Shown in pieces: positions 3,259 through 62,268 of a stretch of 64,000 nt of DNA. How positions within the stretch are numbered: position 1 is the first letter of the stretch; every line of letters begins with the position of its first letter. The DNA is from an uncultured delta proteobacterium. Lineage in GTDB: Bacteria; Myxococcota; UBA727; VGSZ01. Location: contig CAVZJB010000004.1 in NCBI GenBank assembly GCA_963775425.1, positions 544,001 to 608,000 on the forward strand, read 5' to 3'. The notes beneath the pieces were generated by a model. It saw only the letters and a program-made list of their open reading frames with translations, was not told the origin of the DNA and did not search any database. Position numbers and translations under genes: made by a program.

Positions 3259-3271
3259 GAGATTTCCTCGC

Positions 3272-15806: not shown

Positions 15807-15853
15807 CCCGGGGATACTAACGGCTGCGCGCGCCGCCGTGGCAACATGACGAC

Positions 15854-17122
15854 GTGCAGACCCTGCTCGTTGCGTGCGCGCTGGCCGCGGCCGCCGGCTC
15901 CGTCGACGCCGGAGCCGCCGACGGCCCCATCTTCTTCGGGACCGCCGTGCGCGGCCGCGTCTCCAAGGACATGGCGACGCACTTCAAGGCCTCCATCGAG
16001 CGCTCGCTGGCCAAGCAGGGCATCAAGGTGCTCGACGCCTCGGCCGCCGCCGAGGACAGCACCGCCACCGCGGCCGCGGAAGCGCGCGCCGCCCTCGACG
16101 AGGCCATCAGCGCCTACAACGACGACGACTGGCCCACGGCCCTCGCCGACAGCGCGCGCGCGCTCAAGAGCTTCGAGGAGGGGCCCGCCTTCACGAGCGA
16201 CGACCTCGCCTGGGGCCTCTACCGCGACATCCTCTCCTTGCGCGCGCTGACCTACCTCAAGATGCGCAAGCGGCACGACGCCGACGAGGCGGTGCGGGCG
16301 CTCCTCGTGGTGCTGCCACGTTGGGCCCCCAACCGCGAGAAGGCGCCGCCGGACCTCATCCGGCACGTCGACGACGTCAAGGACGAGCTGCGCGCGCTGC
16401 CGCCCGCGAGCATCGAGGTGCAGAGCCGGCCCTCGGGCGCCAAGGTCATCGTCGACGGACGGGAGCGGGGCCGCTCGCCCCTCATCGTCGACGGGCTCGC
16501 GCCGGGGATGCACTACGTCGGCCTCGAGGGGAAATCGGGGCGGTACACGGAGAAAGTCCCCCTGAGCGAGAACGGGGCCGCCGTCGCCGCGCGGCTCGGC
16601 AGCCGCAAGGGGGCGGCGGCGCGGGACGTTGTGCGCGCGCTGTCCAAGCCCACCACGGCGCCGGCGTTCGTGGAGGCCATCACCGGCGTCGACGACGACG
16701 CGCTCGTGATGGTGCTCCTGCCCAAGGGAAAGAAGCGGGCGACGCTCGTCGGGGCGCGGGTGCGCGACGGCGAGGTGAAGACCGTGTGCGGGGTGATCGC
16801 CGCAGACAACGACAACGACCGCGAGCGGGCCACCTTCGTCCTGGTGCAAGGGCTCCTCCAGCGCACCTCGGACGGCTGGTTGGACGAGGCCAAGGACGAG
16901 GACCTGGCCACCCTCCGCCCGACGCTGTTCGCCGGCACCGGGACGCTCGTCGACGAGGCGGAGACGGAGGAGGAGCCGATGAACCCCGCGGTGATCGCGA
17001 GCGCCATCGTCGGCGCCGTGGCCGCGGTGGCCGTCGTCGGCGCGGGCGTGGGATTCTATGTGACGCAGGAGCTGAAGAAGAATGACGGGTTCACGTACAC
17101 GGTGGACACGAGCAAGCTTTGA
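15854..17122 (+). CDS. PEGA-domain secreted/membrane protein with TPR-like helices
   Basis: Signal peptide; IEVQSRPSGAKVIVDG..GRSP (PEGA); C-terminal hydrophobic helix. Confidence 0.8.
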   Translation: MQTLLVACALAAAAGSVDAGAADGPIFFGTAVRGRVSKDMATHFKASIERSLAKQGIKVLDASAAAEDSTATAAAEARAALDEAISAYNDDDWPTALADSARALKSFEEGPAFTSDDLAWGLYRDILSLRALTYLKMRKRHDADEAVRALLVVLPRWAPNREKAPPDLIRHVDDVKDELRALPPASIEVQSRPSGAKVIVDGRERGRSPLIVDGLAPGMHYVGLEGKSGRYTEKVPLSENGAAVAARLGSRKGAAARDVVRALSKPTTAPAFVEAITGVDDDALVMVLLPKGKKRATLVGARVRDGEVKTVCGVIAADNDNDRERATFVLVQGLLQRTSDGWLDEAKDEDLATLRPTLFAGTGTLVDEAETEEEPMNPAVIASAIVGAVAAVAVVGAGVGFYVTQELKKNDGFTYTVDTSKL

Positions 17123-18525: not shown

Positions 18526-19130
18526 GTGGCGCGCGCGACGCCCTTGTGGCGCGCGCGACGCCCTTGTGGCGCGCGCGACGCCCCTTGTGGCGCGCGCGAC
18601 GCCCCGGTGCCTCTTGTGGCGCGCACGAGGCCCGGTGTGGCGTACGCGACGCCCTTGTCGCGCGCGCGACGCTCCGGTTCGCGCGCGACGCCCCGTGCCG
18701 CGCGCGCGACGCCCTTGTGGCGCGCGCCACGCCCCGGTGCCTCTTGTGGCGCGCACGACGCCCCGTGTGGCCCGTGCCGCGCGCGCGACGCCCTTGTGGC
18801 GCGCGCCACGCCCCGGTGCCTCTTGTGGCGCGCGCACGACGCCCCGTGTGGCGCCCCCGATGCCCCGTGTCGCGCGCGACGCCCCGTGCCGCGCGCGCGA
18901 CGCCCGTGTGGCGCGCCACGCCCCGGTGCCTCTTGTGGCGCGCGCGACGCCCCGTGTGGCGCGCGCCACGCCCCTTGTCGCGCGCGACGCCCCGTGGCGC
19001 GCGCGCGACGCCCGTGTGGCGCGCGCGACGCCCCTTGTGGCGCGCGCCACGCCCCGTGCCGCGCGCGCGACGCCCCGTGTGGCGCGCGCGACGCCCGTGT
19101 GGCGCCCCCGATGCCCCGTGTCGCGCGCGG
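18526..19130. repeat. Intergenic minisatellite of about 20-21-bp palindromic units
   Basis: Roughly 28 units of consensus TGTGGCGCGCGCGACGCCC(C)(T/G), with recurring CCGGTGCCTC inserts, between convergent genes. Confidence 0.9.
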
Positions 19131-19137
19131 GACGTAG

Positions 19138-19163: not shown

Positions 19164-20096
19164 TCAGAAAAACCCGAAGCGCAGCGCCGCCGACGCCGAC
19201 GCCGACGCAGGCCGATTCATGCCGGCGTGCGAGAGCGGGACGCCGGAGCTCAGTCCGACGAGGAGCGTCCAATGCGGATCGACCTTCCACGACGCCAGGG
19301 CGCCGGCGGACACCACGAGCGCGTTCGAGCCTTCGGCGACCTTGCCGTCGAGCGTGTACGGCGCGTCCCACACGATGCCCGCGCTGCCGCCGACGACGAC
19401 GCCACCGGCGACCTCGGCGCCCGCGGAGACGCCGGCGGCGGCGGTGGGGCCGAGCGCCTCGACGCCGCCCTTGACGTGAAACGGCATGTACGCGGTGGCC
19501 CCGAGGTCCGCGTGCGCGAAGAACGCGCCGAGCGTCTTGTCCGCGGACAGCGCGGCGCCGGCGCCGAACGCGCCGCGGCTGGTGGCGTCGGTGGCGAGCG
19601 GCGCCCTGGCCTCCTCGGGGCGCCGGCCGGTGGCGAACAGCGCCGAGCCGATGACGGCGACTGTGGGCCACGCGCCCGCCGCGCGCTCGTCGGCGATCTG
19701 CCAGCGCAGGCTGCCCTGGGCGTCGCCGAGCGCGGCGCCGGCGCCGCCCGCGTCGCCCACGCCGCGCGCGGTGGCCACCGCCGGCAACGACGCCGACAGC
19801 TCCAAAGACGGCGCGAGGCGCAGGAGCGCGTACGGCTCGAGGCGTAGCTCGTCCTCGTGGTAGCCGCCGCTGTTCGGGTGGAAGGCGCCGGCGGCATCCC
19901 AGGTGCCGAGCGTGTCGGCGAGCGAGAGCCGCGCGCCGAGCGCCGCTTGCTCCCACATGGCCAGGCGCCCCACGCCGAACATCGCCGACGTCATGCAGCA
20001 GCCCGCCGCTCGCGCCGGGGATGACGCGAGCGCGAGAGCGACGACGACGCCGGCGACCGACGCGGCCGCGGATATGCACGTGGGTCTAGGGCACAT
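19164..20096 (-). CDS. Putative outer-membrane beta-barrel/transporter with N-terminal CC motif
   Basis: Signal peptide ..PARA-AGCCM; alternating amphipathic strands; GAALGDAQGSLRWQ; C-terminal ALRFGFF. Confidence 0.6.
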   Translation of the reverse strand: MCPRPTCISAAASVAGVVVALALASSPARAAGCCMTSAMFGVGRLAMWEQAALGARLSLADTLGTWDAAGAFHPNSGGYHEDELRLEPYALLRLAPSLELSASLPAVATARGVGDAGGAGAALGDAQGSLRWQIADERAAGAWPTVAVIGSALFATGRRPEEARAPLATDATSRGAFGAGAALSADKTLGAFFAHADLGATAYMPFHVKGGVEALGPTAAAGVSAGAEVAGGVVVGGSAGIVWDAPYTLDGKVAEGSNALVVSAGALASWKVDPHWTLLVGLSSGVPLSHAGMNRPASASASAALRFGFF

Positions 20097-20538
20097 CGAA
20101 CGAGGGCGCCGCGCTGCCGCTGGCCGGACCGCTCAACGACGTGCGCAGCTCCCACTCGCCGGGCATGATGAGGTCGACGTTGTCGACGAGGTAGCGGCCG
20201 TCGCCCTGGTCCGTTGCCGATGGGACCACCGATGTGCCGTGGCCCATGCGCGGCATGTACGGGGTGATCTGGATGTCGAGACCCGGCACGCCCTGCCCGT
20301 CGACGTCGACGACGCGGAGCTCGAACGGCACGACGCCGACGATGGGCGGCTGCGGGTCGCTGCGCAGCTCCAGGTGGAGCGCGCCGTCGTCGGTGTCGAC
20401 GGCGACGAGCGCGTCGTCGGGGAACACCGGCGGGCCGTCGTCGACGGGCGCGGCGGGCGCCGCACCGCAAGCCGACAGGCCCAGCGCAGCGACGACGCCG
20501 GCGAGGGCGGGCAGGCAAACCGGGACGAGACGGGGCAT
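20086..20538 (-). CDS. YtkA/FixH-like lipoprotein (copy B1)
   Basis: LSAC lipobox; ITPYMPRMGHG; GDGRY..NVDLIMPGEWEL. Confidence 0.78.
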   Translation of the reverse strand: MPRLVPVCLPALAGVVAALGLSACGAAPAAPVDDGPPVFPDDALVAVDTDDGALHLELRSDPQPPIVGVVPFELRVVDVDGQGVPGLDIQITPYMPRMGHGTSVVPSATDQGDGRYLVDNVDLIMPGEWELRTSLSGPASGSAAPSFDVP

Positions 20539-20607
20539 CGCTGCGAGCTTATCGCGCAGAGCGGCGCGCGTCTCGGCCGGAGGGACGATGTGTGGCCCGC
20601 CGCACGC

Positions 20608-21183
20608 TCAGGGCACGTCGATGAAGAACGCCGCGTGACCGTGCTGCGAGGTCTCGCTGTCGACGCAGTTTTCGTAGAAGTGGAAGCGGACGGTCCAGCG
20701 CCCCGGCGCGTCGAAGCGCACCGGCGTGATGGTGTAGACGCCGGCATCGCCCTCGGTGGTGGCGGTGCCGGCGTTCGGCGCGGGGTGGTTGTCGTCGAGG
20801 AACACCTCGGCGCGCGCGTTGGCCCCGGCGGCGGGGGCGTCGTTGTCGGCGAGCTTGGTGGCGGTGACGGTGAAGGTGACGTCGGCGCCCTCGGTGACGT
20901 CGGAGACGGAGTACTTCACGTGGTACTTGCAGTCGTCGTCGTCACCCTCGGTGTTGAACATCGTCGCGCCGTAGTCGTCGTCGCCCGCGTCGCCTTCGCC
21001 CTCGCCCTCGCCGACGCCGTCGCAGACGGCCGGGTCGGTGAGCACCGGCGTCACGCCCTGGCAGTGGGTGTCGGCGGCGCCGTCGACGGGGCCGCCGACG
21101 TCGGCGGGAGGGGGGCACCCGGTGAGCGCGGCGACGGCCGCGAGGAGCGGGACGGAGGCGAGGGAGAGATGGGAGATGCGCAT
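20608..21183 (-). CDS. His/Cys-rich YtkA-like lipoprotein (copy A1)
   Basis: LTGC lipobox; HCQG, GEGEGEG, DDDDCKYHV, GVYTITPVRFDAPGRWTVRFH, QHGHAAFFIDVP. Confidence 0.72.
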   Translation of the reverse strand: MRISHLSLASVPLLAAVAALTGCPPPADVGGPVDGAADTHCQGVTPVLTDPAVCDGVGEGEGEGDAGDDDYGATMFNTEGDDDDCKYHVKYSVSDVTEGADVTFTVTATKLADNDAPAAGANARAEVFLDDNHPAPNAGTATTEGDAGVYTITPVRFDAPGRWTVRFHFYENCVDSETSQHGHAAFFIDVP

Positions 21184-21218
21184 GGGGAAGGCGTACCCGG
21201 ACGCTCTCTCGAGGTCGA

Positions 21219-21235
21219 TGCGACACAGCGCCGCA
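21219..21235. promoter_or_regulatory. RegA/PrrA-type binding box
   Basis: TGCGAC-ACAGC-GCCGCA, about 36 bp upstream of the 21183 start. Confidence 0.6.
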
Positions 21236-21339
21236 CGCGCCGTGTCCGCGCCGCGCTCGCCCTCGCCGCGGCTCTCAGAGGCTGATCCGCGTCATCGAGA
21301 CCGCCGCGAGTGGCCACGAGGGCTGGCCCGATGGACCGT

Positions 21340-21972
21340 TGATCCGAGCCACCCGGAAGGGGACGGTGCTACGGCCACACGGCGGAGCGGAAAGGAGCTG
21401 CGAGCTCGGCGACGATGACGCGCGCCGAGTTGAGCGCCGGGGCGCCGAGCTCTCCGCTCCTTTCCGCTCCGGCGGCCGTGTGCTCGGTGGGCTCGACCTC
21501 GACGGGTTCACAGCGAGCGCCAAGGCCGTGCAGTTTGGCGGTGGGCGCCCGATTACGAGCCCGCGGATGCTCGTCACGGTGGCGACGGAAGGCAAGGGAT
21601 CGGGAGCGCCCGGGAGATCCCGCCACCTCGGCCGCGCGGGGCCGGCGATCGCGGCAAGCACCAAAAGCAGTACAGGGCGTGGATGAAGAGCGCCGCAGCG
21701 AAGGCGCGATACCGCACGCGCCCTGGTCTCGCCGAGCACGCCAACGCCGTCGACACGCTCTACGTACGGGGGCTAGCGAAGGTGACGACGGTCGCCCTGA
21801 TGGCAGCCGTGGCCTTCAACCTGCTGCAGAACCTCGCGAAGCTCACCGCCTGAAGTCCGCGCCGACGTCGCATCGAGGCACGTCGGCGCGCACACGACCC
21901 GCACGAACCCGCCACGTGCGCTGATAGCGGGATCACAACACCGCTCGGACCCGCCGTTTCCTCACAACCTGC
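21340..21972 (+). mobile_element. Internally deleted IS1182-family transposase remnant
   Basis: N-terminal fragment LDLDGFTASAKAV..GRPITSPRML; C-terminal fragment (21683-21853) MKSAAAKARYRTR..LAEHANA..VRGLAKV..VALMAAVAFNLL; TTTCCTCACAACCT IR-like end near 21957-21970; codon usage differs from neighbours. Confidence 0.65.
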
Positions 21973-22077
21973 AGCGGTTCTTGCGCGCCGACGTGCCTCG
22001 CCACGTACTCCGCGCGGCGAGCCACCTTGTGGGCGGCTTCGCCGAGTGCTGCTACGCCTTATTTTTTCGTCAGCCTT

Positions 22078-22626
22078 TCACGACTTCGGCGGCAGTTTTT
22101 GCAGCTTTCTCTGCAGCGAGCGCCGATGGATGCGCAGGCGCCGCGCCGCCTCCGAGACGTTGCCCTCGCAATCGGCGAGCACACGGTGGATGTGCTCCCA
22201 CTCGGCACGCGCGAGGGAGACGTCGGGGATCGCGACCCCGCCGGACGGCTCGACGACGTCCTCGAGCCCGAGCGCCGACAGGAGCGCCGCGACGGTGACG
22301 GGCTTTTGCAGGTAGTGGACGGCGCCGGCCTGGATGGCGTCGACGGCGGTGGGCACGCTGCCGTATCCCGTGAGCACCACGATGCGGGTGTGCGGGTCGA
22401 TGGCGAGCAGGCCGCGCAACACGTCGAGGCCGGTGATGCCCGGCATGCGCAGGTCCACGACCGCGAGCTCCGGCGGGTCCGCGCGCGCGGCGAGGAGCGC
22501 CGCCTCGCCGTCGCCCTCGGTGCGCACCGACAGGCCGCGCTCGCGCAGCGCCGCGGCGAGGCGCGTGCGAAAGGGCTCGTCGTCGTCGACGAGGAGCACG
22601 CTCGGGGCGTCGGCGTCGGCGCTCAC
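22078..22626 (-). CDS. regA: RegA/PrrA/ActR-family response regulator
   Basis: LLVDDDEPFR, VVDLRMP, LTGYGSVPTAVDAI, SLARAEWEHIHRVLADCEGNVSEAARRLRIHRRSLQRKL. Confidence 0.9.
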   Translation of the reverse strand: MSADADAPSVLLVDDDEPFRTRLAAALRERGLSVRTEGDGEAALLAARADPPELAVVDLRMPGITGLDVLRGLLAIDPHTRIVVLTGYGSVPTAVDAIQAGAVHYLQKPVTVAALLSALGLEDVVEPSGGVAIPDVSLARAEWEHIHRVLADCEGNVSEAARRLRIHRRSLQRKLQKLPPKS

Positions 22627-23813
22627 CGAAACCTCCAGACGGCGCGCGTCTCGACGCCGGGCGTGGAGGTGAGCTCGAGGGCACCACCGAGCTGCTCGGC
22701 GAGCGAGCGCGCGACGAATACGCCCAGGCCCATGCCTTCGCCCGGGGCACGCGTGGTGAAAAACGGCTCGCCGACGTGCGCGAGCGCGTGCGCCGGGATG
22801 CCGGCGCCGTGGTCGACGACGGCGACGGCGAGGCCGGGACCGGCGACGACGCTCACCTCGCCCGGGCCCGCGACGAGCGCGTTGCGCACGAGGCCGCGCA
22901 GCGCGCCGGCGACCGCGCGCCCGGGCACGGTCACCTCACGATTCTCGACGATCTCCACGATCACGCGCTCGCGCCCTCGCACGCCCTCGAGCGCCATGTC
23001 GACGAGCGCGCGCAGCGACAGCGGGCCGATGGCGTCGCTGGCAGCGTGGCCCCCGTCGAGCGCGAGCTGCTCGAGGATGGCTCGGCAGCGCGACACCTGC
23101 TCGAGCACGAGGCGCGCGTCGCCGCTGCGCGCGTCGCCCGGGTCGAGCTTGCGCAAGAGCTCCTCGGCCGCGACCCCGATGGTCGCCAGCGGCGTCGACA
23201 GCTCGTGCGCCGCGCCGCCCGCGAGCGTGGCCAGCGACGCCAGCCGGGTGTGGCGGGCCTCCAGATCGCGCGCGCGCCGCACGGCTCGCTGGACCCGGTT
23301 CACGAACAGGCACACGAGGCCGGCGGCGACGATGAACGCCACCCACATCCCCTTGAGGTGCAGCGCCATGTGCTCGTGGTGGTGGCGCGACACGTCCGTG
23401 AACAAGAAGAGGAGCCCGTACGCCACGGTGGCGATAACGGCCACCGCCCACGCGCCCGCGCCCCCGAGCACCACCGCGGCGAGGCTCACGTGCACCAGGT
23501 AGAGGAACGTGAACGGGTTGAACGGCCCGCCGGTGAGCGCGAGCAGGAGCGTCAGCGTGGCGATGTCGGCGACGAGGATGATGACCAGCGCCCCGCGGGG
23601 CACGCGGGTGACCCGGCGTCGCGCGACCTCGAGGGCCGCGTTCGCCAGCGCGTTGGCGACGACGACGGCGACGGCGCGCCCGACGGCGACCTCGTCGGGC
23701 GCGAGCCAGAGCACCGCGGCGAGCACCGCCGCTTGGGCGAACACCGCGCCCCAGCGGAGCCGCACGAGCTCGCGCAAATGGATGACACCCTCGTCCTCAC
23801 GGCCCGTCGCCAC
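22623..23813 (-). CDS. regB: RegB/PrrB-family membrane sensor histidine kinase
   Basis: LVRLRW, GGPFNPF (GGxxNPF), HLKGMW, AAHELSTPL H-box, RCRAIL Cys, GEPFFTT, GMGLG. Start taken at GTG 23813 (ORF track: 23921) because a RegA box lies at 23847. Confidence 0.88.
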   Translation of the reverse strand: MATGREDEGVIHLRELVRLRWGAVFAQAAVLAAVLWLAPDEVAVGRAVAVVVANALANAALEVARRRVTRVPRGALVIILVADIATLTLLLALTGGPFNPFTFLYLVHVSLAAVVLGGAGAWAVAVIATVAYGLLFLFTDVSRHHHEHMALHLKGMWVAFIVAAGLVCLFVNRVQRAVRRARDLEARHTRLASLATLAGGAAHELSTPLATIGVAAEELLRKLDPGDARSGDARLVLEQVSRCRAILEQLALDGGHAASDAIGPLSLRALVDMALEGVRGRERVIVEIVENREVTVPGRAVAGALRGLVRNALVAGPGEVSVVAGPGLAVAVVDHGAGIPAHALAHVGEPFFTTRAPGEGMGLGVFVARSLAEQLGGALELTSTPGVETRAVWRFR

Positions 23814-23846
23814 GGGCTCCCATAGCAAGGCTGCGCCGTCCGCGCC

Positions 23847-23863
23847 TGCGACACGGTGCCGCA
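23847..23863. promoter_or_regulatory. RegA/PrrA-type binding box (autoregulatory)
   Basis: TGCGAC-ACGGT-GCCGCA, about 34 bp upstream of the in-frame GTG of regB. Confidence 0.6.
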
Positions 23864-23922
23864 CGTGAGCGGCGGGCGCCGCTGCGGGAGCGAGACGCGG
23901 CGGCGCGGCGGCCGCCCTCATC

Positions 23923-24645
23923 TCAAGGGTTGAGGAACGTGATCAGGTCGGCGACGTCGTCGTCGCTCAACTGTTCCTTCGTGAACGGCGGCATGCTCCC
24001 GCCGATGCCGAAGAACGCGCCGTGGCGGATCTTCTCGATGACAACGAGGTCGGCAGGAAAGCCGATCTCCTTGGCGAAGCTCTCGCTGGCTTCGGGCACG
24101 AGCACCGCCAGCTCCGTGAGCCGCCCCTCGCCTGTGTGGGGCGCGCCGTGGCAGACCGCGCACGCGTGATCCCAGATGTCGGCGCCGTGGCTCGCGTCGC
24201 CCTTGGGCAGCGAGACGACGTTTTCGACGATGGTGAGCGGCAGCGTGTCCTCGCCCGCATCTCCACCGGGCGCGTCGGCGGCGCTCGAGAGGTACTCGTA
24301 GATCGCGCGGGCGCGCGGGTCGTCCCGGGTGAACGCCGTTCCCCGCATGAAGAACGTGAAGCACGCGTTGGTGGCGTCGAGGAGGTTCGTCGAGTACCCG
24401 CCCCAGAAGCGCGTGCGCCGCGCCGCGTTCTTCAAATCGTAGCCCGCGAAGACGCGGTCACCGGGGTCGCCCATGGCATGGCACGTGGCGCAGGAGAACT
24501 TGTTGACCTCGCTGTCGGCGAGCCGCGCGTCGTTGAAGAGCTGCTCGCCGACGTCCTTGGCCGGGACGGGGCCGCAGCCCGCACCGAGCCCCATGAGCAG
24601 CGCGGCGCCCGCGAGCGTGACGACGAGCGGCGTGCGGGGCGTCAT
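23923..24645 (-). CDS. Diheme c-type cytochrome lipoprotein
   Basis: GAGC lipobox; CATCH and CAVCH; NACFTFFMRG; GGSMPPF. Confidence 0.85.
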   Translation of the reverse strand: MTPRTPLVVTLAGAALLMGLGAGCGPVPAKDVGEQLFNDARLADSEVNKFSCATCHAMGDPGDRVFAGYDLKNAARRTRFWGGYSTNLLDATNACFTFFMRGTAFTRDDPRARAIYEYLSSAADAPGGDAGEDTLPLTIVENVVSLPKGDASHGADIWDHACAVCHGAPHTGEGRLTELAVLVPEASESFAKEIGFPADLVVIEKIRHGAFFGIGGSMPPFTKEQLSDDDVADLITFLNP

Positions 24646-25907
24646 TGGGGCACCCGCATGGCCGCGATGTCATCGGGGAAGATGCCGAGCGTGACCTTCC
24701 CCAACAGCGCGTGAGGCGGCGCGGCGTCGAACACCAAGAAGCTGCCCGGGTTCGTGTGGTCGCCTTCGCAGACGGTGAAGATCTTCGTGCCGTCCTCGTT
24801 GAACCGCGCCACGTGGGGGAGCACGCAGTCCGACGGGCTCACGAAGATGGTGGACTCGAACGTCAACGTGCCGCCGCTGACGTCAAAGAGGGTGACGCCA
24901 TCGGTGTTCTGATGCGCGATCAGCATGGTGTCGCCGCGCACGTCGCCGAACGACGCTACGCCGGGGAGCTGGAACTTCTGCCCGTTGAGCGAGCGCGAGG
25001 GGATGTCGACGCCGATGACCTCGCCGCTGCTGAAACACGACACCCACGCCGTCTCGCCGTCGACGGTGATGCCGTACGGCTGGCAGATGGGGTTGTCGAG
25101 CGTGCCCGGGTTGTCGATCACCTGCAGGACGTCGACGTGGTGGTCGTCGCCGACGAGGTCGATGATGGCGACGTGGTCGTTGTAGCAGGAGGTCACCGCC
25201 GTCGAGGAGTCGGGGGTGAAGCCGATGCCGTGCGCGGCCGGACACGTCTCCACGAACGTGGGCTTGTCCATGGTCTCCGGGTCGATGATGGCGAGCCGCG
25301 AATCGACGTCGGGGCCCTCCGTGATGCCGTTGCCGATCGCCGTGGTGACCTTGGCGAGATCGAAGTGCGACGCCACCAGCGTCTTTCCGTCCGGCGTGAG
25401 CCGGATGTCGCCCGGGTTCGGGTCCACGCGCGACGCGGCGACGAACGAGTTGTCCGAGACGCGCATCTTGACCATGTGCCCCGGGATGGTGCCGGCGCCG
25501 TGGACGCCGTGCGGCCCCGAGCCCGAGCCGGGCACGAAGTTGGAGACCCCGTAGTAGTAGAACTGGCCGTCGGCGCCGGCGACGCAGTGGTGCGGCCCCT
25601 CGCGCTCCACCGGCACGAAGCCCGCCGGCACCTTGCCGAGCAACACCGGCGCGCCCGCGTCGGCGCTGTCGAGGTCGATGACGCTGATGGTGTCCTCGAG
25701 GTTGTCGGTGACGTAGATGCGGCCCTCGCCCGGCCCGGGCGACGGCATGAGCGGCGCCGTGGGCCACACCTTGTCCGCGGGGATGTCGAACGTCATCACC
25801 GGCAGGTGGTCGGGGTCGAACGTGCACCCGGCAGCGGCGCCGCCGGCCGCGACGACGGCGACGACGAGCTCCACCAGGCGTGCGCGCGCGCGCTCTCTCG
25901 TCGTCAC
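24642..25907 (-). CDS. YncE/YVTN-like beta-propeller lipoprotein
   Basis: GTG overlapping the upstream stop; AAGC lipobox; RIYVTDNLEDTISVID, NPGDIRLTPDGK, AHGIGFTPD repeats; EGPHH and GPHGVHG. Confidence 0.78.
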   Translation of the reverse strand: MTTRERARARLVELVVAVVAAGGAAAGCTFDPDHLPVMTFDIPADKVWPTAPLMPSPGPGEGRIYVTDNLEDTISVIDLDSADAGAPVLLGKVPAGFVPVEREGPHHCVAGADGQFYYYGVSNFVPGSGSGPHGVHGAGTIPGHMVKMRVSDNSFVAASRVDPNPGDIRLTPDGKTLVASHFDLAKVTTAIGNGITEGPDVDSRLAIIDPETMDKPTFVETCPAAHGIGFTPDSSTAVTSCYNDHVAIIDLVGDDHHVDVLQVIDNPGTLDNPICQPYGITVDGETAWVSCFSSGEVIGVDIPSRSLNGQKFQLPGVASFGDVRGDTMLIAHQNTDGVTLFDVSGGTLTFESTIFVSPSDCVLPHVARFNEDGTKIFTVCEGDHTNPGSFLVFDAAPPHALLGKVTLGIFPDDIAAMRVPQ

Positions 25908-27346
25908 TCGGGCTCCCCGCACGCGATCCAGGCGAGCAGCGTGGTGCGCTCGTCCGGCGCGAGCTTCCCGTCCGCGGGCATGGTGCACGCGGCGACGTCG
26001 GCGAGCATGTTGTCGTGCTGGTCGATCGCGCCCTGGCGCGTGTCGAGCGGCTCGGCGGCCGCGGCGCCGTCGGCGGTGTGGCAGTACACGCAGCTCTTCT
26101 CGAGGATGGGCGCGACGTCCGCGGCGTAGCTCGGCGGCGTCGCGGGGCACGAAGGCGCGCCGTCGTCGGGGCAGTCGAAGGCCGGCCCGAAGTCCGGGTT
26201 GGCGACGAAGCTCTCGTCGGTGAGGCTCGAGAGGAAGGCGAGCAAGCCGTTCTTCTCGTCGTCGTCGAGCGTGAACCCCTTCACCAGAGGGTCCTTGAGC
26301 GGGTTCTGGCTGCCGTCGCCGGCGTTGTCCTCGCCGTCCGCGATGGCGCGGCCGGCGTGCGCGTATTGATCGACGAGCACGCTGTCGAGCGTGGCCATGG
26401 AGCCGTCGTGCATGTACGGCGCCGTGAGGTCGATGTTGCGCAGGCTGGTCGCGCGGAACTTGCCCATGTCGCCGTCGTCGTCGGTGAAGTCGATGAGGCC
26501 GCGATCGCCTGCGGGGTACGCGCCGGCGCCGTCGACGTTGTACAGGCCGGTGTTGTGATAGACAGCGGCCACCGGGAACGCGTCCGTGGTGGACGTGGAG
26601 GTGTCGGCGAGGTTGAAGTCGCCGTGGCAGTGGTAGCACTCGCACTTCTCGGAGAAGAAGAGCGTGAGCCCCCTCTTGGCGTCGTCGCTGAGCGCGGCGT
26701 CGTCGTGATCGTTGAAGTAGCGATCGTAGGGCGTGTCGCCCGACAGGAGCGTGCGCTCGAACGACGCGATGGCCTTCTTGACGTTGGTGGTGGTGAACGG
26801 GTCTCGCTCGTCGGGGAAGGCCGCGGTGAAGAGCTGCGCGTAGGTGTCGTCGTCGCGCAGGGCGGAGACGATGTCCGCGTCGATGCCCGAGAGCCCGAGC
26901 TCGACGGGGTGCTCGGAGAACATCGGGATGTCCATCTGCTTCTCGAGCGTGCCCTGCGCGGGGTTGGACCACGTGTTGGCGACGTTGTACGCCACGTTGG
27001 TGAGGCTCATGGCGTTGTGCTCGGTGAGGTCGCCGGTGGCGCCGCGCGCGCGGACGCGGCCGTCGGTGAAGCCCTTCACCTGGATGTGGCAGGTGCCGCA
27101 CGACGTGGTGCCGTTCACCGACAAGCGCTTCTCGTAAAAGAGGTGGTGCCCGAGCTCGACCTTCTCGTCGGTCATGGGGTTGTCGTCGGGCACGCGCGGG
27201 GTCGGCAGCGCGGGCGGCGGCGGGTGCCGCTCGAAGAAGTCCTTGGGCTTGCGCGGCGTCGGCGGCGGACACCCCGCGAGCGAGAGCGCCGCGGCGAGCG
27301 TCGCGAGAGGCGCCCCCAGCGCCACGGCGACCGCCCTCGCCTTCAT
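25904..27346 (-). CDS. mbnH: MbnH-like di-heme enzyme (bCcP/MauG superfamily) with fused third c-heme domain
   Basis: LAGC lipobox; PDDNPMTDEKVELGHHLFYEKRLS..SCGTCH; CYHCH; YHNTGLYNVDG; GKFRATSLRNI.LTAPYMHDGS; extra C-terminal CVYCH domain; directly follows MbnP. Confidence 0.88.
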   Translation of the reverse strand: MKARAVAVALGAPLATLAAALSLAGCPPPTPRKPKDFFERHPPPPALPTPRVPDDNPMTDEKVELGHHLFYEKRLSVNGTTSCGTCHIQVKGFTDGRVRARGATGDLTEHNAMSLTNVAYNVANTWSNPAQGTLEKQMDIPMFSEHPVELGLSGIDADIVSALRDDDTYAQLFTAAFPDERDPFTTTNVKKAIASFERTLLSGDTPYDRYFNDHDDAALSDDAKRGLTLFFSEKCECYHCHGDFNLADTSTSTTDAFPVAAVYHNTGLYNVDGAGAYPAGDRGLIDFTDDDGDMGKFRATSLRNIDLTAPYMHDGSMATLDSVLVDQYAHAGRAIADGEDNAGDGSQNPLKDPLVKGFTLDDDEKNGLLAFLSSLTDESFVANPDFGPAFDCPDDGAPSCPATPPSYAADVAPILEKSCVYCHTADGAAAAEPLDTRQGAIDQHDNMLADVAACTMPADGKLAPDERTTLLAWIACGEPE

Positions 27347-28194
27347 GGGGCCGCCCCCACGCCGAACACGGACTGCGCCGGCGCCTCCTCGCCCGCGGCG
27401 AAGGGGAGCCCGACGCTGTGAAAGAGGCTCTCGCAGTCGGGGTCCGTCGGCTCGGACATGCAGCCCGGCGCGGTGTCGGCGGTGTTGTTGTCGATGTCCG
27501 CGCCCGACAGGAGCGCGCCCACGTCGATGGTGACGGCCTTGTCGGGGCTCCAGTCGGACAGGGAGATGGTCGGGCGGTTCGGGTGGTCGCATCCCTGGAC
27601 GACGCCGCCGGCGCCGACGTCGCAACCGGCGCTGCCGACGTGGCAGTACCAGCCCTCGGGCTGCCCGTCCGAGTAGATGTCGAGCTTGAAGAAGCGATAG
27701 CCCGCGGCCCACCCCCAGTAGAGCGACGAGAGGTTGAGCGGCGACGGCGCCTTGCTCGCGTCGGCGTGGTCGACGTCGTCGGGGACGCCCACGTCGAAGG
27801 TGACGCCGTCGTACGTGCCCTCGGGCGCGTGGACATTGACGACGGTGCGCGTGTCGGCGGTGCCCGGGCTGCACTTGCCCGTGCCGTCCTCGAAGTCCAG
27901 CAGCGCGACGCCCTTGGCCTGCCAGGGCGCCTCGTCGTCGACGGTGGCGTCGACGTCGCCGTCTGCGCCGTGCAGGCGCACGTGCGAGATGTACACGCGC
28001 AGGTCGCCGATCTGCATGGACGAGCCGCTGCTGCCGATGCCGGTGTAGCTCTGCCCGCACGCGAGCGGCGCGCCGGCCACGGTGGCGGCGAAGGTGAGCG
28101 AGACGGCCTGACCGGGATCGTCGGGAGGCGGACAACCACCGAGCCCGGCGGCCATGACGGCGACGACGGCGACGGTGAGGATGCGCATCTTCAT
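27343..28194 (-). CDS. mbnP: MbnP-family copper-binding protein (metallo-mystery pair, four-Cys)
   Basis: GGC lipobox; DLRVYIS, WQAKGVALLDFEDGTGKC, PSPLN..LYWGWAAGYRF (WxW), HVGSAGC, CDHPNR, PGCMS..DPDC. Confidence 0.9.
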   Translation of the reverse strand: MKMRILTVAVVAVMAAGLGGCPPPDDPGQAVSLTFAATVAGAPLACGQSYTGIGSSGSSMQIGDLRVYISHVRLHGADGDVDATVDDEAPWQAKGVALLDFEDGTGKCSPGTADTRTVVNVHAPEGTYDGVTFDVGVPDDVDHADASKAPSPLNLSSLYWGWAAGYRFFKLDIYSDGQPEGWYCHVGSAGCDVGAGGVVQGCDHPNRPTISLSDWSPDKAVTIDVGALLSGADIDNNTADTAPGCMSEPTDPDCESLFHSVGLPFAAGEEAPAQSVFGVGAAP

Positions 28195-28214
28195 GTCGTA
28201 CCACTCCAGAAGGG

Positions 28215-28652
28215 TCAATTGTCGGGCGATCCGCACACGAGCCACGTGAGGAGCATCGATCGGGCGTCGGGGGGCAACACGACACCCGCGTCGGGCGGCG
28301 GCATCGTGCACGCGTAGACCTGATTGAGCACCGCGCTGCGGCGACGAAAGACGTCGTCGTAGTCGACGAGGGGCTTGTTCGCCACCGCCGCGCCGGGCGC
28401 GTGGCATTGATCGCAGGTGCTCGCGAAGATGGGCTCGACGTCGGCCTGGAAGCTCGGCGCGGGCGAGGGGCACTCGCTCGGCAAGTCGTTCGGGCAAGGG
28501 CCGTCGTCGACGCCTGCGTCGGGAGGGTCGACGCCGCCCGGGCACGCGGCGGCGCCGAGCGACAGGAGCGCGACCGCGACGAGCTGCGGCGCGCCCCAAC
28601 GGGTCGATCCTCTAGGGCACGTCAAAGCTCGGGTCCGCGGTGTCATCGTCAT
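28215..28652 (-). CDS. Monoheme cytochrome c lipoprotein (paralog of the MbnH C-terminal domain)
   Basis: AAAC lipobox; PSFQADVEPIFASTCDQCH..ACTMP..LLTWLVCG; start position uncertain. Confidence 0.78.
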   Translation of the reverse strand: MTMTPRTRALTCPRGSTRWGAPQLVAVALLSLGAAACPGGVDPPDAGVDDGPCPNDLPSECPSPAPSFQADVEPIFASTCDQCHAPGAAVANKPLVDYDDVFRRRSAVLNQVYACTMPPPDAGVVLPPDARSMLLTWLVCGSPDN

Positions 28653-29055
28653 CGAAGGTGGTCTGCAGCTCCCAGAGGCCGCTCATGATGAGGTCGACGT
28701 TGTCGACGGTGTAGACGCCGTCGCCGTCCTCGCTCACGCTGGGGTGCACGGAGGCCCCGTGGTTCATCTGCGGCATCCAGGGCTTCACCGTGAAGGAGAG
28801 CCCCGTGAGCGGCGCCCCGTCGGCGTCGGTGACCACGAACTGAAACGGTGTCACGCCCACGGCGGGCGGCTGCGGCGACGAGCGCACCTCGATGTGCTTG
28901 GCCGCGTTGGTGCTGTCGACGGAGAGGAGCGCCTGGTCGGGGAACACCACCGGCGCGGGCTCGGGCTCGCCCTCTGCCGCCTGCCCGAAGCAACCGGCGA
29001 CGCCGAACAGGGCGAGGGTGGCGACGACGACAGGCAGGGAGCGGGAGAGCGGCAT
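28612..29055 (-). CDS. YtkA/FixH-like lipoprotein (copy B2)
   Basis: VAGC lipobox; VKPWMPQMNHG; GDGVY..NVDLIMSGLWEL; paralog of 20086..20538. Confidence 0.78.
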   Translation of the reverse strand: MPLSRSLPVVVATLALFGVAGCFGQAAEGEPEPAPVVFPDQALLSVDSTNAAKHIEVRSSPQPPAVGVTPFQFVVTDADGAPLTGLSFTVKPWMPQMNHGASVHPSVSEDGDGVYTVDNVDLIMSGLWELQTTFDDDDTADPSFDVP

Positions 29056-29062
29056 GAAGACC

Positions 29063-29647
29063 TCAGGGCACGTCGATGAAGAACGCGACGTGTCCGTGCT
29101 GTGACGTGTCGCTGTCGACGCAGTTTTCGTAGAGGTGGAAGCGGACGGTCCACCGGCCCGCCTTGTCGAAGCGGATGGGGCCGACGGTGTACACGCCGGG
29201 GCCGCTCTCGAGGGTGGTGGTCCCCGAATTCGGCGCGGGGTGGGTCTCGTCGAGGAAGACCTCGGCGCGCGTGTTGGCGCCGGCGGCGGGGGCGTCGTTC
29301 TCCGCCAGCTTGGTGGCGGTGACGGTGAAGGTGACGTCGCGGTCTTCGGTGACGGGCGTGACGTCGAACTTCACGTGGTACTTGCAGTCGTCGTCGTCGG
29401 CCTCGGTGTTGAACAGCGTGGGGCCGTAATCGTCGGCGGCGTCGCCTTCGCCTTCGCCTTCACCTTCACCTTCACCTTCACCGGCGCCGTCGCACACGGC
29501 GGGGTCGGTGAGGACGGGCGTCACGCCCTGGCAGTGGGTGTCCGCGTCACCGGTGACGGGACCGCCGACGGCCTCTGCAGGCGGCGGACAGGCCGCGCAC
29601 AGCGCCACGGCCATCGAGGGAAGCAGGGTCCGGACGACGATGCGCAT
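29063..29647 (-). CDS. His/Cys-rich YtkA-like lipoprotein (copy A2)
   Basis: CAAC lipobox; highly similar to 20608..21183 (THCQGVTPVLTDPAVCDG, DDDDCKYHV, QHGH.AFFIDVP). Confidence 0.72.
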   Translation of the reverse strand: MRIVVRTLLPSMAVALCAACPPPAEAVGGPVTGDADTHCQGVTPVLTDPAVCDGAGEGEGEGEGEGEGDAADDYGPTLFNTEADDDDCKYHVKFDVTPVTEDRDVTFTVTATKLAENDAPAAGANTRAEVFLDETHPAPNSGTTTLESGPGVYTVGPIRFDKAGRWTVRFHLYENCVDSDTSQHGHVAFFIDVP

Positions 29648-29695
29648 GCTCGGGCTTGTATACGGGGCAGCCCGGCGCGTCGATGCGGGTTGATC

Positions 29696-29720
29696 AGCGA
29701 CCGGAGGGAGCGGCCGCGCT
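29696..29720. repeat. REP-like 25-bp element, copy 1
   Basis: AGCGACCGGAGGGAGCGGCCGCGCT, identical to 35310-35334, flanked by GATC arms. Confidence 0.7.
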
Positions 29721-29812
29721 TGATCCGGACGCACGAGCGGCACGCTCGTCGCGACGCGCTGGTGAGCGCAAAGGAGACCGGGGGCATGATCACAAACGAA
29801 ACTGTCAGGCCC

Positions 29813-29852
29813 GTCTTTGGACATGACGTCACTCGGCATCACGTCCAAAGAC
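29813..29852. terminator. Inverted repeat just after the 29859 stop
   Basis: GTCTTTGGACATGA...TCACGTCCAAAGAC (14-bp stem, one mismatch). Confidence 0.45.
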
Positions 29853-29858
29853 GTGACG

Positions 29859-30470
29859 TCACTCGACATGAAAGGTCACCGGGTTGCCTTTGTAGGGGCC
29901 CTCGCTGACCCGGTTGTTCACCAGATACGCCCCGACGATGCTCGCGGTGATGTCCTCGCCCTTGTGGTCCTTGAGCTCCTTCCACGCCGCGTCGTCGAGC
30001 GTGACCTGAAGGTTGGACGTGTGCACGCCGAGCGGGCAGGTGCGCCCCGACAGCGGCATCTCGATGAGGTACATGTCGCCGGTCTTGGGCGGCAGGTGCG
30101 CGAGCGCCGGCGGGTCGAGCGCACCGAACAGCGCGTCCGCGGCGCCGCCGATGAAGCCGCGCGCGGGCACACGCACGGCCTTGCGCGCGGGCTTGCGCGC
30201 CGGCTCCAGGGACGCCACGCGCAGCGGCGAGGTCCAGGTGAACGTCGGCGCCGCGCGGACCGCCGCGCCGTCCGCCGGGGCCGTGAACACCGGCGAGCTC
30301 GCCTCGTCGAAGGTGGCGTGCGGCTCCACGTCCTTCATCGTGAGCCAGGTGTCGTCGGTGACGTTGCCGTCGAAGGCCGGCTCCTGGTCCGGCTCGAGAC
30401 AGGGGTCCCCCGTCGGACCGCACGCGGCGGCGAGGGAGGCAAGACACAAGGCGACGACGACCACGCGCAT
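29859..30470 (-). CDS. Hypothetical lipoprotein heading the Mbn-PH cluster
   Basis: MRVVVVALCLASLAAAC lipobox; PTFTWTS; PPALAHLPP; LVNNRVSEGPY. Confidence 0.7.
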   Translation of the reverse strand: MRVVVVALCLASLAAACGPTGDPCLEPDQEPAFDGNVTDDTWLTMKDVEPHATFDEASSPVFTAPADGAAVRAAPTFTWTSPLRVASLEPARKPARKAVRVPARGFIGGAADALFGALDPPALAHLPPKTGDMYLIEMPLSGRTCPLGVHTSNLQVTLDDAAWKELKDHKGEDITASIVGAYLVNNRVSEGPYKGNPVTFHVE

Positions 30471-30689: not shown

Positions 30690-32012
30690 ATGGGGCAGCC
30701 GAGCACCGAGCACCTCGACGTCGACGACATGCTCCACGCATGGGCCGTCCTGTCGGGGCCCGAGCGGCGCGAAGGGTTCACGCTGCTGGACCACACCGCG
30801 GCAGAGGAGCTGTTCCTGTCGCTGCCCGCGCGTGACCAAGCGGACCTGCTGCACTCTCTGCTGCCGAACGAGCGGCGGCTGTGGCTGCGCTTGTTGCCGC
30901 CGGACGACGCCGCCGACGTCATCCAGGCGTCGCCCGAGGAGGAACGCGGCGAGCTGTTGGCGCTGCTCGACGACCAGGCGCGCCGCGACGTCACGGCGCT
31001 GCTCGCCTACGAGGAGGACGTCGCCGGCGGCGTGATGAGCACGCGCTTCGCGCGGCTGCGTCCGGACATGAGCGTCGACGAGGCCATCCAATATCTGCGT
31101 CGTCAGGCGCGCGCGCGCGTGGAGACGCTCTACTACGCCTACGTGCTCGACGCGGGCCAACACATGCTCGGCGTCGTCTCCTTCCGCGACCTGTTCGCCG
31201 CGCCGCCGGGCGCCCTCGTGCGGGACATCATGATCACCGAGGTGGTCACCGTGCCCGAGACCATGGACCAGGAGGCCGTGGCGCACCTGTTCGCGGACAA
31301 CGACCTCATCGCCGTCCCCGTCGTCGACGCGGCGAGCCGCATGAAGGGCATCATCACCGTCGACGACATCGTCGACGTGGTCGCCGAGGAGGCCACCGAG
31401 GACATCCAGAAGGTCGGCGGCACCGAGGCGCTCTCGGGCCCCTACCTCGGCGTGCGCATGACCGAGATGGTGAAGAAGCGCGCGGGCTGGCTCACCATCC
31501 TGTTCGTCGGCGAGATGCTCACCGCGTCGGCGATGGGGTACTTCCAGCACGAGATCGAGCGCGCGGTGGTGCTCGCGCTGTTCATCCCGCTCATCATCTC
31601 GTCGGGCGGCAACTCGGGCTCGCAGGCGTCCACGCTCATCATCCGCTCGCTCGCCCTCGGGGAGCTCGGCCTGCGCGACTGGCCGCGCGTCCTGCGCCGC
31701 GAGCTGCTCTCGGGCCTCACGCTCGGGGTGGTGCTCGGCGCCATCGGCTTCGTGCGGGTGGTGATGTGGGCGCTGATCTTTCGTATGTACGGGCCGCACT
31801 TCCTGCTCGTCGCGGCCACCGTCGGCGTGAGCCTCGTCGGCGTCGTCACCTGGGGCACGGTCACGGGCTCCATGCTCCCGTTCGCGTTGCGCCGCGCGGG
31901 CTTCGATCCCGCGAGCGCCTCGGCGCCGTTCGTGGCCACGCTCATCGACGTCACCGGGCTCGTCATCTACTTCTCGGCGGCGTCGGTCCTCTTCCTGCGC
32001 GTCCTCGAGTAG
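30690..32012 (+). CDS. mgtE: Magnesium transporter MgtE
   Basis: LPPDDAAD, AGGVMS, CBS pair, KRAGWL, ISSGGNSGSQAS, DPASASAPFVATLIDVTG. Confidence 0.95.
   Translation: MGQPSTEHLDVDDMLHAWAVLSGPERREGFTLLDHTAAEELFLSLPARDQADLLHSLLPNERRLWLRLLPPDDAADVIQASPEEERGELLALLDDQARRDVTALLAYEEDVAGGVMSTRFARLRPDMSVDEAIQYLRRQARARVETLYYAYVLDAGQHMLGVVSFRDLFAAPPGALVRDIMITEVVTVPETMDQEAVAHLFADNDLIAVPVVDAASRMKGIITVDDIVDVVAEEATEDIQKVGGTEALSGPYLGVRMTEMVKKRAGWLTILFVGEMLTASAMGYFQHEIERAVVLALFIPLIISSGGNSGSQASTLIIRSLALGELGLRDWPRVLRRELLSGLTLGVVLGAIGFVRVVMWALIFRMYGPHFLLVAATVGVSLVGVVTWGTVTGSMLPFALRRAGFDPASASAPFVATLIDVTGLVIYFSAASVLFLRVLE

Positions 32013-58545: not shown

Positions 58546-62268
<3,723 letters not shown>

Follow-up and report, generated by a model that had tools for sequence, protein, structure and literature searches.

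How copper crosses the Gram-negative outer membrane and is handed on in the periplasm is poorly known beyond methanobactin and a few TonB-dependent routes. A run of 13 genes from an uncultured delta proteobacterium (GTDB lineage Bacteria; Myxococcota; UBA727; VGSZ01), several of which belong to copper- or haem-binding families, raises the question of whether we are looking at one copper system or at several elements that have come to lie side by side. The run occupies positions 19164-30470, minus strand, of the stretch that we analysed (the window), 64,000 nucleotides from GenBank assembly GCA_963775425.1 (contig CAVZJB010000004.1, positions 544,001 to 608,000). A preliminary description of this DNA took it to be an expanded MbnP/MbnH copper-haem system built around a RegB/RegA pair. 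We instead read the region as a composite of four elements and not as one conserved system, with copper handling in the cell envelope as its most likely function, and we put the probability of this reading at about 0.5. The first element comprises two copies of an uncharacterised but recurrent myxobacterial module based on two YtkA-domain lipoproteins, here termed A and B (A2-B2-monohaem cytochrome and A1-B1-barrel). The second is the MbnP/MbnH pair, whose MbnH has a third haem domain fused to it. The third is a seven-histidine YncE-type propeller with a dihaem cytochrome, translationally coupled to MbnH, and the fourth is a two-component system of the quinone/redox-sensing RegB/RegA type. In the order of transcription, the region reads as follows.

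lipo: 29859-30470, minus strand, putative lipoprotein of 203 amino acids, first gene of the run, no known family
A2: 29063-29647, minus strand, His/Cys-rich YtkA-domain lipoprotein of the A family (PF13115, 27.3 bits)
B2: 28612-29055, minus strand, Met/His YtkA-domain lipoprotein of the B family (PF13115, 49.5 bits)
monohaem cytochrome: 28215-28652, minus strand, PSCyt1-like c-type cytochrome lipoprotein with one CxxCH, at residue 80
MbnP: 27343-28194, minus strand, copper-binding family (TIGR04052, 245 bits against a cut-off of 140; PF20243, 138.1 against 27)
MbnH: 25904-27346, minus strand, dihaem enzyme with a fused third haem domain (TIGR04039, 458.7 bits against 362.85)
propeller: 24642-25907, minus strand, YVTN/YncE-type beta-propeller lipoprotein with seven invariant His
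dihaem cytochrome: 23923-24645, minus strand, c-type cytochrome and putative lipoprotein with CxxCH at residues 52 and 162
regB: 22623-23921, minus strand, RegB-like redox sensor histidine kinase (ActS/PrrB/RegB model, 216.4 bits against a cut-off of 350)
regA: 22078-22626, minus strand, RegA-like response regulator, Response_reg plus HTH_8, a Fis-type helix-turn-helix (HTH) (ActR/PrrA/RegA model, 162.7 bits against 250)
gap: 21184-22077, 894 bp, non-coding, with no coding phase by GC phase
A1: 20608-21183, minus strand, second A-family lipoprotein (PF13115, 25.4 bits)
B1: 20086-20538, minus strand, second B-family lipoprotein (PF13115, 36.0 bits)
barrel: 19164-20096, minus strand, outer-membrane beta-barrel with an N-terminal Cys-Cys

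We asked which of these genes travel together in other genomes. A scan of species-representative genomes with an alignment of the A family returned 292 pattern matches, 220 of which encode an A relative, and the best 80 of these 220 loci, with up to 10 kb on each side, form our census. Neighbours were located by tblastn, the queries being the 13 window proteins plus representative sequences of further recurrent neighbours, and were counted within 6 kb of A; in a subset of 45 loci, at least 5 kb is available on both sides of A. The census was taken from the A (accessory) side only. According to their record titles, 61 of the 80 loci are myxobacterial and 19 carry an unspecific delta- or proteobacterial label, with none from another phylum. 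The counts near A, for all loci and then for the subset, are the following.

monohaem cytochrome: 52 of 80, 31 of 45
B: 48 of 80, 30 of 45
pentahaem cytochrome (Cytochrome_C554 family): 33 of 80, 20 of 45
barrel: 28 of 80, 19 of 45
redoxin: 21 of 80, 12 of 45
RegA: 18 of 80, 11 of 45
RegB: 17 of 80, 11 of 45
BNR-type propeller: 10 of 80, 6 of 45
TonB-dependent receptor: 6 of 80, 3 of 45
MbnP, MbnH and lipo: each 3 of 80, 2 of 45
the window's propeller: 0 of 80, 0 of 45 (also 0 of 80 at E 1e-2)
the window's dihaem cytochrome: 0 of 80, 0 of 45

Two gene orders recur, A>monohaem>B>pentahaem and A>B>barrel>redoxin, the pentahaem cytochrome being a protein of ~480 amino acids (e.g. L018, 1819-3261; L042, 2442-3002 is a further example of a recurrent neighbour). 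The conserved unit is A and B with a small cytochrome and the barrel, often beside RegB/RegA, and MbnPH is an occasional neighbour. The idea of an expanded MbnPH system does not survive this comparison: MbnP and MbnH lie near A in just 3 of the 80 loci, the propeller and the dihaem cytochrome in none, and, seen from the accessory side, the accessory genes that the preliminary description had tied to mbnPH are not conserved with it, an outcome which that description had itself named as telling against its proposal. In the window, moreover, the 894-bp gap, which may hold a transposase fragment, separates the A1-B1-barrel copy from the rest. The reading that fits best is that of a mosaic put together within this lineage, which weakens the picture of a single 13-gene machine.

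It is thus unlikely that the region forms an integrated relay centred on MbnPH, in which copper would pass from the barrel through the YtkA-like proteins to MbnP, with cytochromes as electron donors, to feed the respiratory chain under RegAB control. Several features do speak for such a relay. The 13 genes are co-oriented and, as first described, many have overlapping stop and start codons (6 of 12 junctions); MbnP and MbnH are bona fide family members by hidden Markov model (HMM) and PDB match; and one locus, L055, unites A, B, the monohaem cytochrome, lipo, three-haem MbnH, MbnP and RegBA within 7 kb. Of all the loci, it resembles the window most closely overall, with A, B and the monohaem gene followed by a convergent MbnP-MbnH(long form)-lipo set and then by RegBA, yet its arrangement is different and it has no propeller or dihaem gene. 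The respiratory genes invoked by the preliminary description are also present in the window, namely SCO1/SenC at 4125-4763 by domain search, haem o synthase (CtaB) at 4757-5692 (TIGR01473, 226.5 bits against a cut-off of 210.3), and a pair resembling alternative complex III (ACIII) or Qrc at 1-3994, made up of a 4Fe-4S and a multihaem subunit. These, however, lie 14.4 kb from the barrel gene, behind unrelated genes on both strands, and SCO and CtaB occur in none of the 80 A loci and ActB in 1, so the proposed supply to the respiratory chain finds no conserved link.

We next consider what the A/B module may bind. Against the gathering cut-off of 25.9 bits for YtkA (PF13115), A2, B2 and B1 pass and A1 falls 0.5 bit short. 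A1 and A2 share 74% protein identity, and their DNA is 84% identical across 300 nt; B1 and B2 are 49% identical as proteins and carry the same invariant Met/His/Met/Trp residues. The A family has 1049 relatives at E<=1e-3 in a large protein set, and a library of 1.84 billion representative proteins contains 405 clusters of it at 50% identity. Because ten His/Cys residues are invariant in its alignment (H38, C39, C52, C88, H91, H136, H171, C176, H184 and H186), we regard A as a distinct family. An AlphaFold model of A2, with a predicted local distance difference test (pLDDT) score of 86.2, finds CrdA (9ll4) as its best fold match in the PDB (E 3.6e-4, template modelling (TM) score 0.75 on the target), followed by weak matches to FetP/P19 and CopC. 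In the B family, M94, H99, G113, M124, G126 and W128 are invariant, and the family profile matches Helicobacter pylori CrdA (9ll2, E 7.2e-6), its sole significant solved relative. Here, the invariant PwMPxxGHG loop of B is aligned onto the Met-rich loop of CrdA, a sequence relation to a Cu(I) site that holds for the B family only. A Trp takes part in the CusF site, and the invariant Met, His, Met and Trp of B recall the Met2His set of that protein. The Met2His set of CusF is described in PMC9182242, as is the Met-rich loop of CrdA, a proposed Cu(I) site shared with CopC and PcoC. When the domains of A and B are aligned to each other, the His-bearing THPAPN loop of A comes to lie opposite the MPxMxHG loop of B, which suggests harder and softer versions of one site. 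The copper theme of the preliminary description is therefore plausible, given the profile match of B to CrdA, the fold match of A to CrdA and the family of MbnP.

Modelling of adjacent pairs as complexes, which the preliminary description had suggested, was run for A with B. The predicted complex scores 0.45 against 0.00 for the best control, with contacts agreeing by at least 75% between runs and a partner pLDDT of at least 87. Of 157 solved complexes, 116 reach the mark used, as do 2 of 215 mismatched pairs; at scores of 0.60 or below, just 18 of the 157 solved complexes and both passing mismatches reach it. The prediction thus lends weak support to an A-B complex. [quoted passage not shown] A comparable role for the window's YtkA-domain proteins would be an analogy with CtaK, and there are no oxidase genes in the cluster.

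Variants of both proteins were also seen. B comes in two forms: that of the window ends in ...DVP, and the other has an extra Cys pair (N-terminal C..D.R, C-terminal F.FC..G) and is found mainly in the A>monohaem>B>pentahaem arrangement. Fused forms of A account for 3 longer proteins among 8000 candidates; one of them, P0122 (626 amino acids), consists of a BNR/sortilin-type propeller fused to a YtkA domain of the A type and echoes the propeller-then-A gene order of some loci, and is too rare to build on. In A2 itself, a hexanucleotide repeat, CCTTCA (6.3 copies, 29445-29482), encodes a GEGEGE linker; the length of this type of linker differs among A relatives.

A relation to CrdA could equally be taken to mean periplasmic copper detoxification or resistance, with B and A sequestering Cu(I) and Cu(II) in the manner of CrdA and CopC and the barrel serving as an exit. 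The only solved sequence relative of B is indeed a copper resistance determinant, whose Met-rich motif is common to CopC and PcoC (PMC9182242). What makes detoxification improbable is the company that the module keeps: neither the cluster nor its recurrent neighbours include an efflux pump, a P-type ATPase, a multicopper oxidase or a copper-sensing regulator, and the associated regulator is of the quinone/redox sensor type. The window's RND pump (42032-46254) lies 11.5 kb from the cluster, with unrelated genes between. Sequence alone is compatible with both uptake and detoxification.

The barrel gives no Pfam match, to E 10. Its AlphaFold model (pLDDT 83.0) is all-beta and matches FapF (5o65, TM 0.72/0.80, E 3e-16) and a COG4313 channel (4rl8, TM 0.69/0.78, E 5e-12). 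An AQACC motif directly after the signal peptide is common to those relatives for which the N-terminus was captured. A second putative barrel, with an N-terminal CxxCxC, adjoins A or MbnP in L031, L034, L055 and L060 (e.g. L055, 14449-15330; L060, 8677-9567); a comparison of the two barrels by hhalign (probability 5.8%) showed no relation between them.

The monohaem cytochrome is the most frequent companion of A. Its family alignment keeps the CxxCH, a C-x-M-P motif and paired cysteines, and a relative in L035 matches PF07635 (PSCyt1) at E 2e-8. In the dihaem cytochrome, the C-terminal half matches Cytochrome_CBB3 (53.6 bits) and Cytochrom_C (42.3 bits); its sole match in the 80 loci, in L080, has an E of 9e-3. 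The propeller has 104 relatives, some of them with PF10282, PF21783 or PF02239 and labelled YncE or YVTN by some sources. As a single sequence it yields nothing significant in Pfam, to E 10, and the plasmid collection contains no match to it; a profile built from 29 members of the family matches 1l0q (1.3e-18), hydrazine synthase beta (1.1e-13) and YncE 3vgz (9.8e-6) in the PDB. The label of a His-rich propeller given in the preliminary description is apt, as seven histidines are invariant in the family (H106, H107, H133, H136, H181, H226 and H365), together with acidic residues (Asp and Glu) and cysteines. This set of residues suggests a metal centre. We also considered a copper propeller like NosZ or thiocyanate dehydrogenase, and rejected it, NosZ matching only at E 0.05.

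These findings bear on the possibility that the central operon serves the propeller, which would be a seven-His metalloenzyme with the dihaem cytochrome as its redox partner, matured or metalated by MbnH/MbnP and A/B. From MbnP through MbnH and the propeller to the dihaem cytochrome, each gene overlaps the next by 4 nt, the invariant residues would suit a metalloenzyme, and MauG-type enzymes, as described in PMC11951088, act on partner proteins. The second-best profile match in the PDB is to hydrazine synthase beta, and the model of the gamma subunit of that enzyme weakly matches MbnH. We nevertheless consider this account very unlikely, as no propeller relative stands beside MbnPH in the three other MbnPH loci and the NosZ match is so poor.

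Both members of the MbnP/MbnH pair are genuine, as the preliminary description had proposed, since they pass the curated cut-offs and match solved structures. MbnP matches 7l6g at E 4.5e-33, with its W-G-W falling on the W-N-W of that structure, and an alignment of 7 sequences holds the WxW motif, two His and the Cys columns invariant. MbnP is a copper protein, and MbnH converts a Trp of its WxW motif to kynurenine at the copper site (PMC11951088). By family membership and its WxW motif, the window's MbnP is predicted to undergo kynurenine formation and to bind copper. MbnH matches 6e1c at E 6.2e-101 over residues 44-394, and CCP_MauG at 143 bits. Of its three CxxCH motifs (residues 83, 237 and 419), which bear out its description as a three-haem protein, the third belongs to a C-terminal domain sharing 40% identity (E 4e-18) with the separate monohaem cytochrome encoded two genes upstream. 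The same long form of MbnH occurs in L055, covering query residues 16-479. Its partner MbnP is adjacent, the mbnP stop and the mbnH start overlapping by 4 nt.

The protein that we call lipo has no Pfam or NCBIfam match (Pfam to E 10). Its nearest Atlas clusters hold unnamed lipoproteins, with Myxococcota as the commonest phylum (score 0.96), which is a lead only. Relatives at 26-33% identity by tblastn are found in 3 of the 80 loci (L031, L034 and L055). Because lipo directly follows MbnH in all three of these MbnPH loci, we assign it to MbnPH and not to A/B. A relation to the 'copper uptake system-associated protein' of Paracoccus was tried and rejected, for lack of similarity (E 0.38).

The preliminary description was right that the window holds neither mbnABC nor a TonB-dependent receptor, insofar as DUF692 (MbnB), Plug and TonB_dep_Rec find no match among its 49 proteins, a scan that did not extend to the short mbnA peptide. 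MbnPH pairs away from mbn genes were noted as early as 2013 (PMC3621798), and the name of the NCBIfam MbnH model includes a locus tag from Myxococcus. In a 2026 study, mbnPH is linked to the release of copper from methanobactin or to methanobactin uptake (PMC13729199). In the plasmid collection, 12 records matched MbnP, and we inspected three of them (L081-L083). In these RefSeq records, the gene after mbnP (L081, 7880-9031; L082, 7783-8952; L083, 7815-9086) is named 'methanobactin export MATE transporter MbnM'. The name is probably a slip, because the Paracoccus gene that bears it scores 440.9 bits on the MbnH model TIGR04039.

A RegB/RegA pair, as proposed in the preliminary description, is real. 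Both proteins fall short of the NCBIfam equivalog cut-offs, yet ActS/PrrB/RegB and ActR/PrrA/RegA are their best-scoring families, and the published motifs are present. RegB has GGPFNPF, an R-x6-Q (RWGAVFAQ) in the first membrane helix and an HELSTPL H-box followed by R-C-R, and RegA has a Cys directly before the HTH (CEGNVSEAARRL). These correspond, by motif and order and not by alignment to Rhodobacter capsulatus, to the GGXXNPF quinone site, the Arg and Gln of helix 1 and the redox Cys after the H-box described for RegB (PMC3000548), and to the Cys before the HTH in group 1 RegA (PMC9147068). Among the 22 kinases, the window's RegB included, that fall into one cluster by single linkage, 15 have GGxxNPF. 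Cotranscription with senC, a trait of group 1, was not found in the window, where the only SCO1/SenC gene, at 4125-4763, is ~17 kb from regA.

A role in copper handling is best supported by these results, because of the match of B to the Met-rich loop of CrdA, the CrdA fold of A, the copper binding of MbnP and the precedent of RegBA-SenC synteny. In the scheme that we favour, the barrel, a 12-strand FapF/COG4313-like channel with two Cys at its mature N-terminus, would pass copper across the outer membrane. A, with a His-rich site in the loop where B has its Met/His site, would bind the harder Cu(II), the monohaem cytochrome would supply an electron, and B would hold Cu(I) by a Met-His-Met-Trp set like that of CusF or CrdA. 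MbnP would add a further periplasmic copper site once MbnH has converted the Trp of WxW, and RegB/RegA would make expression follow the quinone pool's redox state. Our data show the gene identities, the residues conserved across each family, the co-occurrence counts and the fold similarities; we infer the metal, the direction of flow (uptake or detoxification), the order of transfer, the regulation and any link to the respiratory chain. A more specific version is tentative and rather doubtful: A, the monohaem cytochrome, B and the Cys-Cys barrel could form an undescribed reductive copper uptake system of myxobacteria, set by RegB/RegA, in which the barrel would admit copper, A capture Cu(II), cytochrome c reduce it and B carry Cu(I) onward; in this genome the system would also feed MbnP and the seven-His propeller, which would be a new cuproenzyme.

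Several observations weigh against copper handling by such a composite. No unambiguous copper marker (CopA or another P-type ATPase, a multicopper oxidase, CusCBA, CopCD or a copper sensor) is present in the cluster or among its conserved neighbours. The fold matches of A other than CrdA, among them iron-transport FetP/P19, have TM scores of 0.25-0.37 on the query, and Ig-like folds are common and match many things. Solved MbnP has His and Met copper ligands (PMC11951088). The Met beside WxW in 7l6g is a Leu in the window's MbnP, at a position that varies across the family. In 31 of the 80 loci, A has no same-strand partner directly downstream, partly owing to contig ends, and the window itself lacks the pentahaem cytochrome and the redoxin that accompany the A module elsewhere. 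As no relative of the propeller or the dihaem cytochrome was found in the 80 loci, their link to the A module is specific to this genome. Lastly, terminator-like sites (5, against 3.7 +/- 2.2 expected) are no commoner than chance and do not delimit transcription units; a promoter scan gave 0 sites.

An iron or general redox view is kept alive by the many cytochromes, by the look-alikes among iron-transport proteins and by an acidic DDDDC run that is invariant in the A family. The module would then serve redox chemistry or electron transfer for another substrate (iron, another metal, or periplasmic or extracellular electron transfer), with the YtkA-like proteins as metal carriers or scaffolds. 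Cytochromes do dominate the conserved set (monohaem in 52 and pentahaem in 33 of the 80 loci), the weaker fold matches of A include the iron-uptake proteins FetP/P19/FtrA, and TonB-dependent receptors lie near A in 6 of the loci. Still, the FetP/P19 matches reach TM scores of 0.33-0.37 on the query with E values around 1e-2, no permease of the Ftr1/EfeU type turned up among the neighbours, the Met/His/Met/Trp set of B is typical of Cu(I) and not of iron, and MbnP is a copper protein (PMC11951088). On balance we find a substrate other than copper quite unlikely.

The gene structure underlying this analysis was established in five ways (third-position GC phase, open reading frame (ORF) listing, read-through translations, start mapping and a codon-usage gene call), the G+C content of ~72% making raw ORF lists of the window crowded. 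All agree on 13 intact genes on the minus strand at 19164-30470, in keeping with the number and coordinates first given. The junctions, in transcription order, are as follows (negative values are overlaps).

lipo/A2: +211 nt
A2/B2: +7 nt
B2/monohaem: -41 nt, with the ATG chosen as the monohaem start
monohaem/MbnP: +20 nt
MbnP/MbnH, MbnH/propeller and propeller/dihaem: -4 nt each
dihaem/regB: +1 nt
regB/regA: -4 nt, the regA start being the GTG at 22626
A1/B1: +69 nt
B1/barrel: -11 nt

The family calls of the preliminary description are mostly borne out by HMM search, with A1, RegB and RegA scoring below the cut-offs. It had also assigned lipoboxes, by inspection, to 10 of the 11 non-regulatory products; a relaxed regular expression, used in place of a lipoprotein predictor, flags 8 of these 10, but the barrel as well. 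In A2 and the dihaem protein, a Cys follows the hydrophobic stretch, but the residues before it are non-canonical for a lipobox. The insertion sequence remnant reported between regA and A1 shrinks to a possible transposase fragment, since it depends on a single sub-threshold DDE_Tnp_1_6 match (E 0.0053, 17.5 bits against a cut-off of 25.1, 21434-21853, plus strand). Two imperfect hairpins adjoin this weak fragment, formed by inverted repeats at 21380-21411/21443-21474 (32-nt arms, 91% complementary) and 21857-21892/21982-22017 (36-nt arms, 81% complementary).

On one side the cluster is bordered by a divergent MgtE gene (30690-32012). On the other, directly downstream of the barrel gene, it is bounded by a tandem repeat array at 18526-19134, with ~29 copies of a 21-nt unit (consensus GTGGCGCGCGCGACGCCCCGT; 67% matches, 14% indels). 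Because of the indels, this is unlikely to be a coding repeat. Ser/Thr protein kinases, PEGA-domain proteins and a 1737-amino-acid CarboxypepD_reg plus beta-helix protein lie around the cluster (13740-17122, 35626-42065 and 58546-62268) and have no evident tie to it.

Part of what we describe is already known: MbnPH outside methanobactin operons, and the YtkA, CrdA and RegBA families. We judged novelty against the searchable literature, a body that leaves aside the neighbourhood analyses of the primary MbnPH papers (PNAS 2021, JBC 2019); these may already list some of the neighbours. Within that literature, no paper joins YtkA with MbnP, and work on YtkA-like proteins or PF13115 concerned, among the matches listed, Bacillus or a relative, plus Entamoeba. 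Three things appear new: the A/B lipoprotein module with a cytochrome and the Cys-Cys barrel, its recurrent link to RegBA, and, in the window, its union with MbnH of the three-haem form and a seven-His propeller. Widespread as judged by the 220 loci that encode A relatives, the A/B module brings together recognisable copper-chaperone folds, a dedicated cytochrome and a Cys-Cys barrel, often with a quinone-sensing regulator next to it. Should it prove to be a redox-coupled copper pathway, the YtkA/CrdA family would gain a defined biochemical setting, and the purpose of MbnP and MbnH where methanobactin is absent would be explained. The comparison across loci also corrects a tempting reading, in that the conspicuous MbnPH pair is an occasional guest of the module and not its core.

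We compared the region with known systems. The MbnP/MbnH pair of Methylosinus trichosporium OB3b (7l6g, 6e1c) is alike in its P-then-H order, adjacency, WxW motif and scores on the curated models. Unlike there, the 49 scanned proteins of the window include no mbnABC product or TonB-dependent transporter, its MbnH is extended by a third haem domain that is PSCyt1-like, MbnP and MbnH both look like lipoproteins, and YtkA-like proteins, cytochromes and a propeller are encoded next to them. Bacillus subtilis YtkA/CtaK and H. pylori CrdA are likewise small extracytoplasmic Ig-like proteins, CtaK being lipid-anchored. The window differs from both in having paired, diverged paralogue types, a His/Cys-rich A and a Met/His B, which accompany a cytochrome c and an outer-membrane barrel and not cta oxidase genes or a Czc-type pump. 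The ten family-invariant His/Cys residues of A are not found in CrdA, which has no His according to PMC9182242.

The alphaproteobacterial RegB/RegA systems (PrrB/PrrA, ActS/ActR) with senC show the same motifs and also stand beside genes resembling periplasmic copper chaperones. In our case the host is a myxobacterium, the scores are below the cut-offs, and the partners are YtkA-like lipoproteins and cytochromes in place of senC. On a Paracoccus seriniphilus plasmid, a run known to us by annotation only encodes MbnP, MbnH, a copper-uptake-associated protein, PCuAC, SCO and SCO. As in the window, MbnPH there lies beside periplasmic copper chaperones of a type that serves CuA assembly, and no TonB-dependent receptor is found within 7 kb; unlike the window, the plasmid has PCuAC/SCO instead of A/B and no cytochromes, barrel, propeller or RegBA. 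Finally, the window's barrel resembles the FapF/COG4313 channels (5o65, 4rl8) in predicted fold (TM 0.69-0.80) and in its size of ~280-310 residues. It differs from them in having no sequence-family match and in its partners, which are metal-binding lipoproteins and not the products of amyloid or aromatic-degradation genes.

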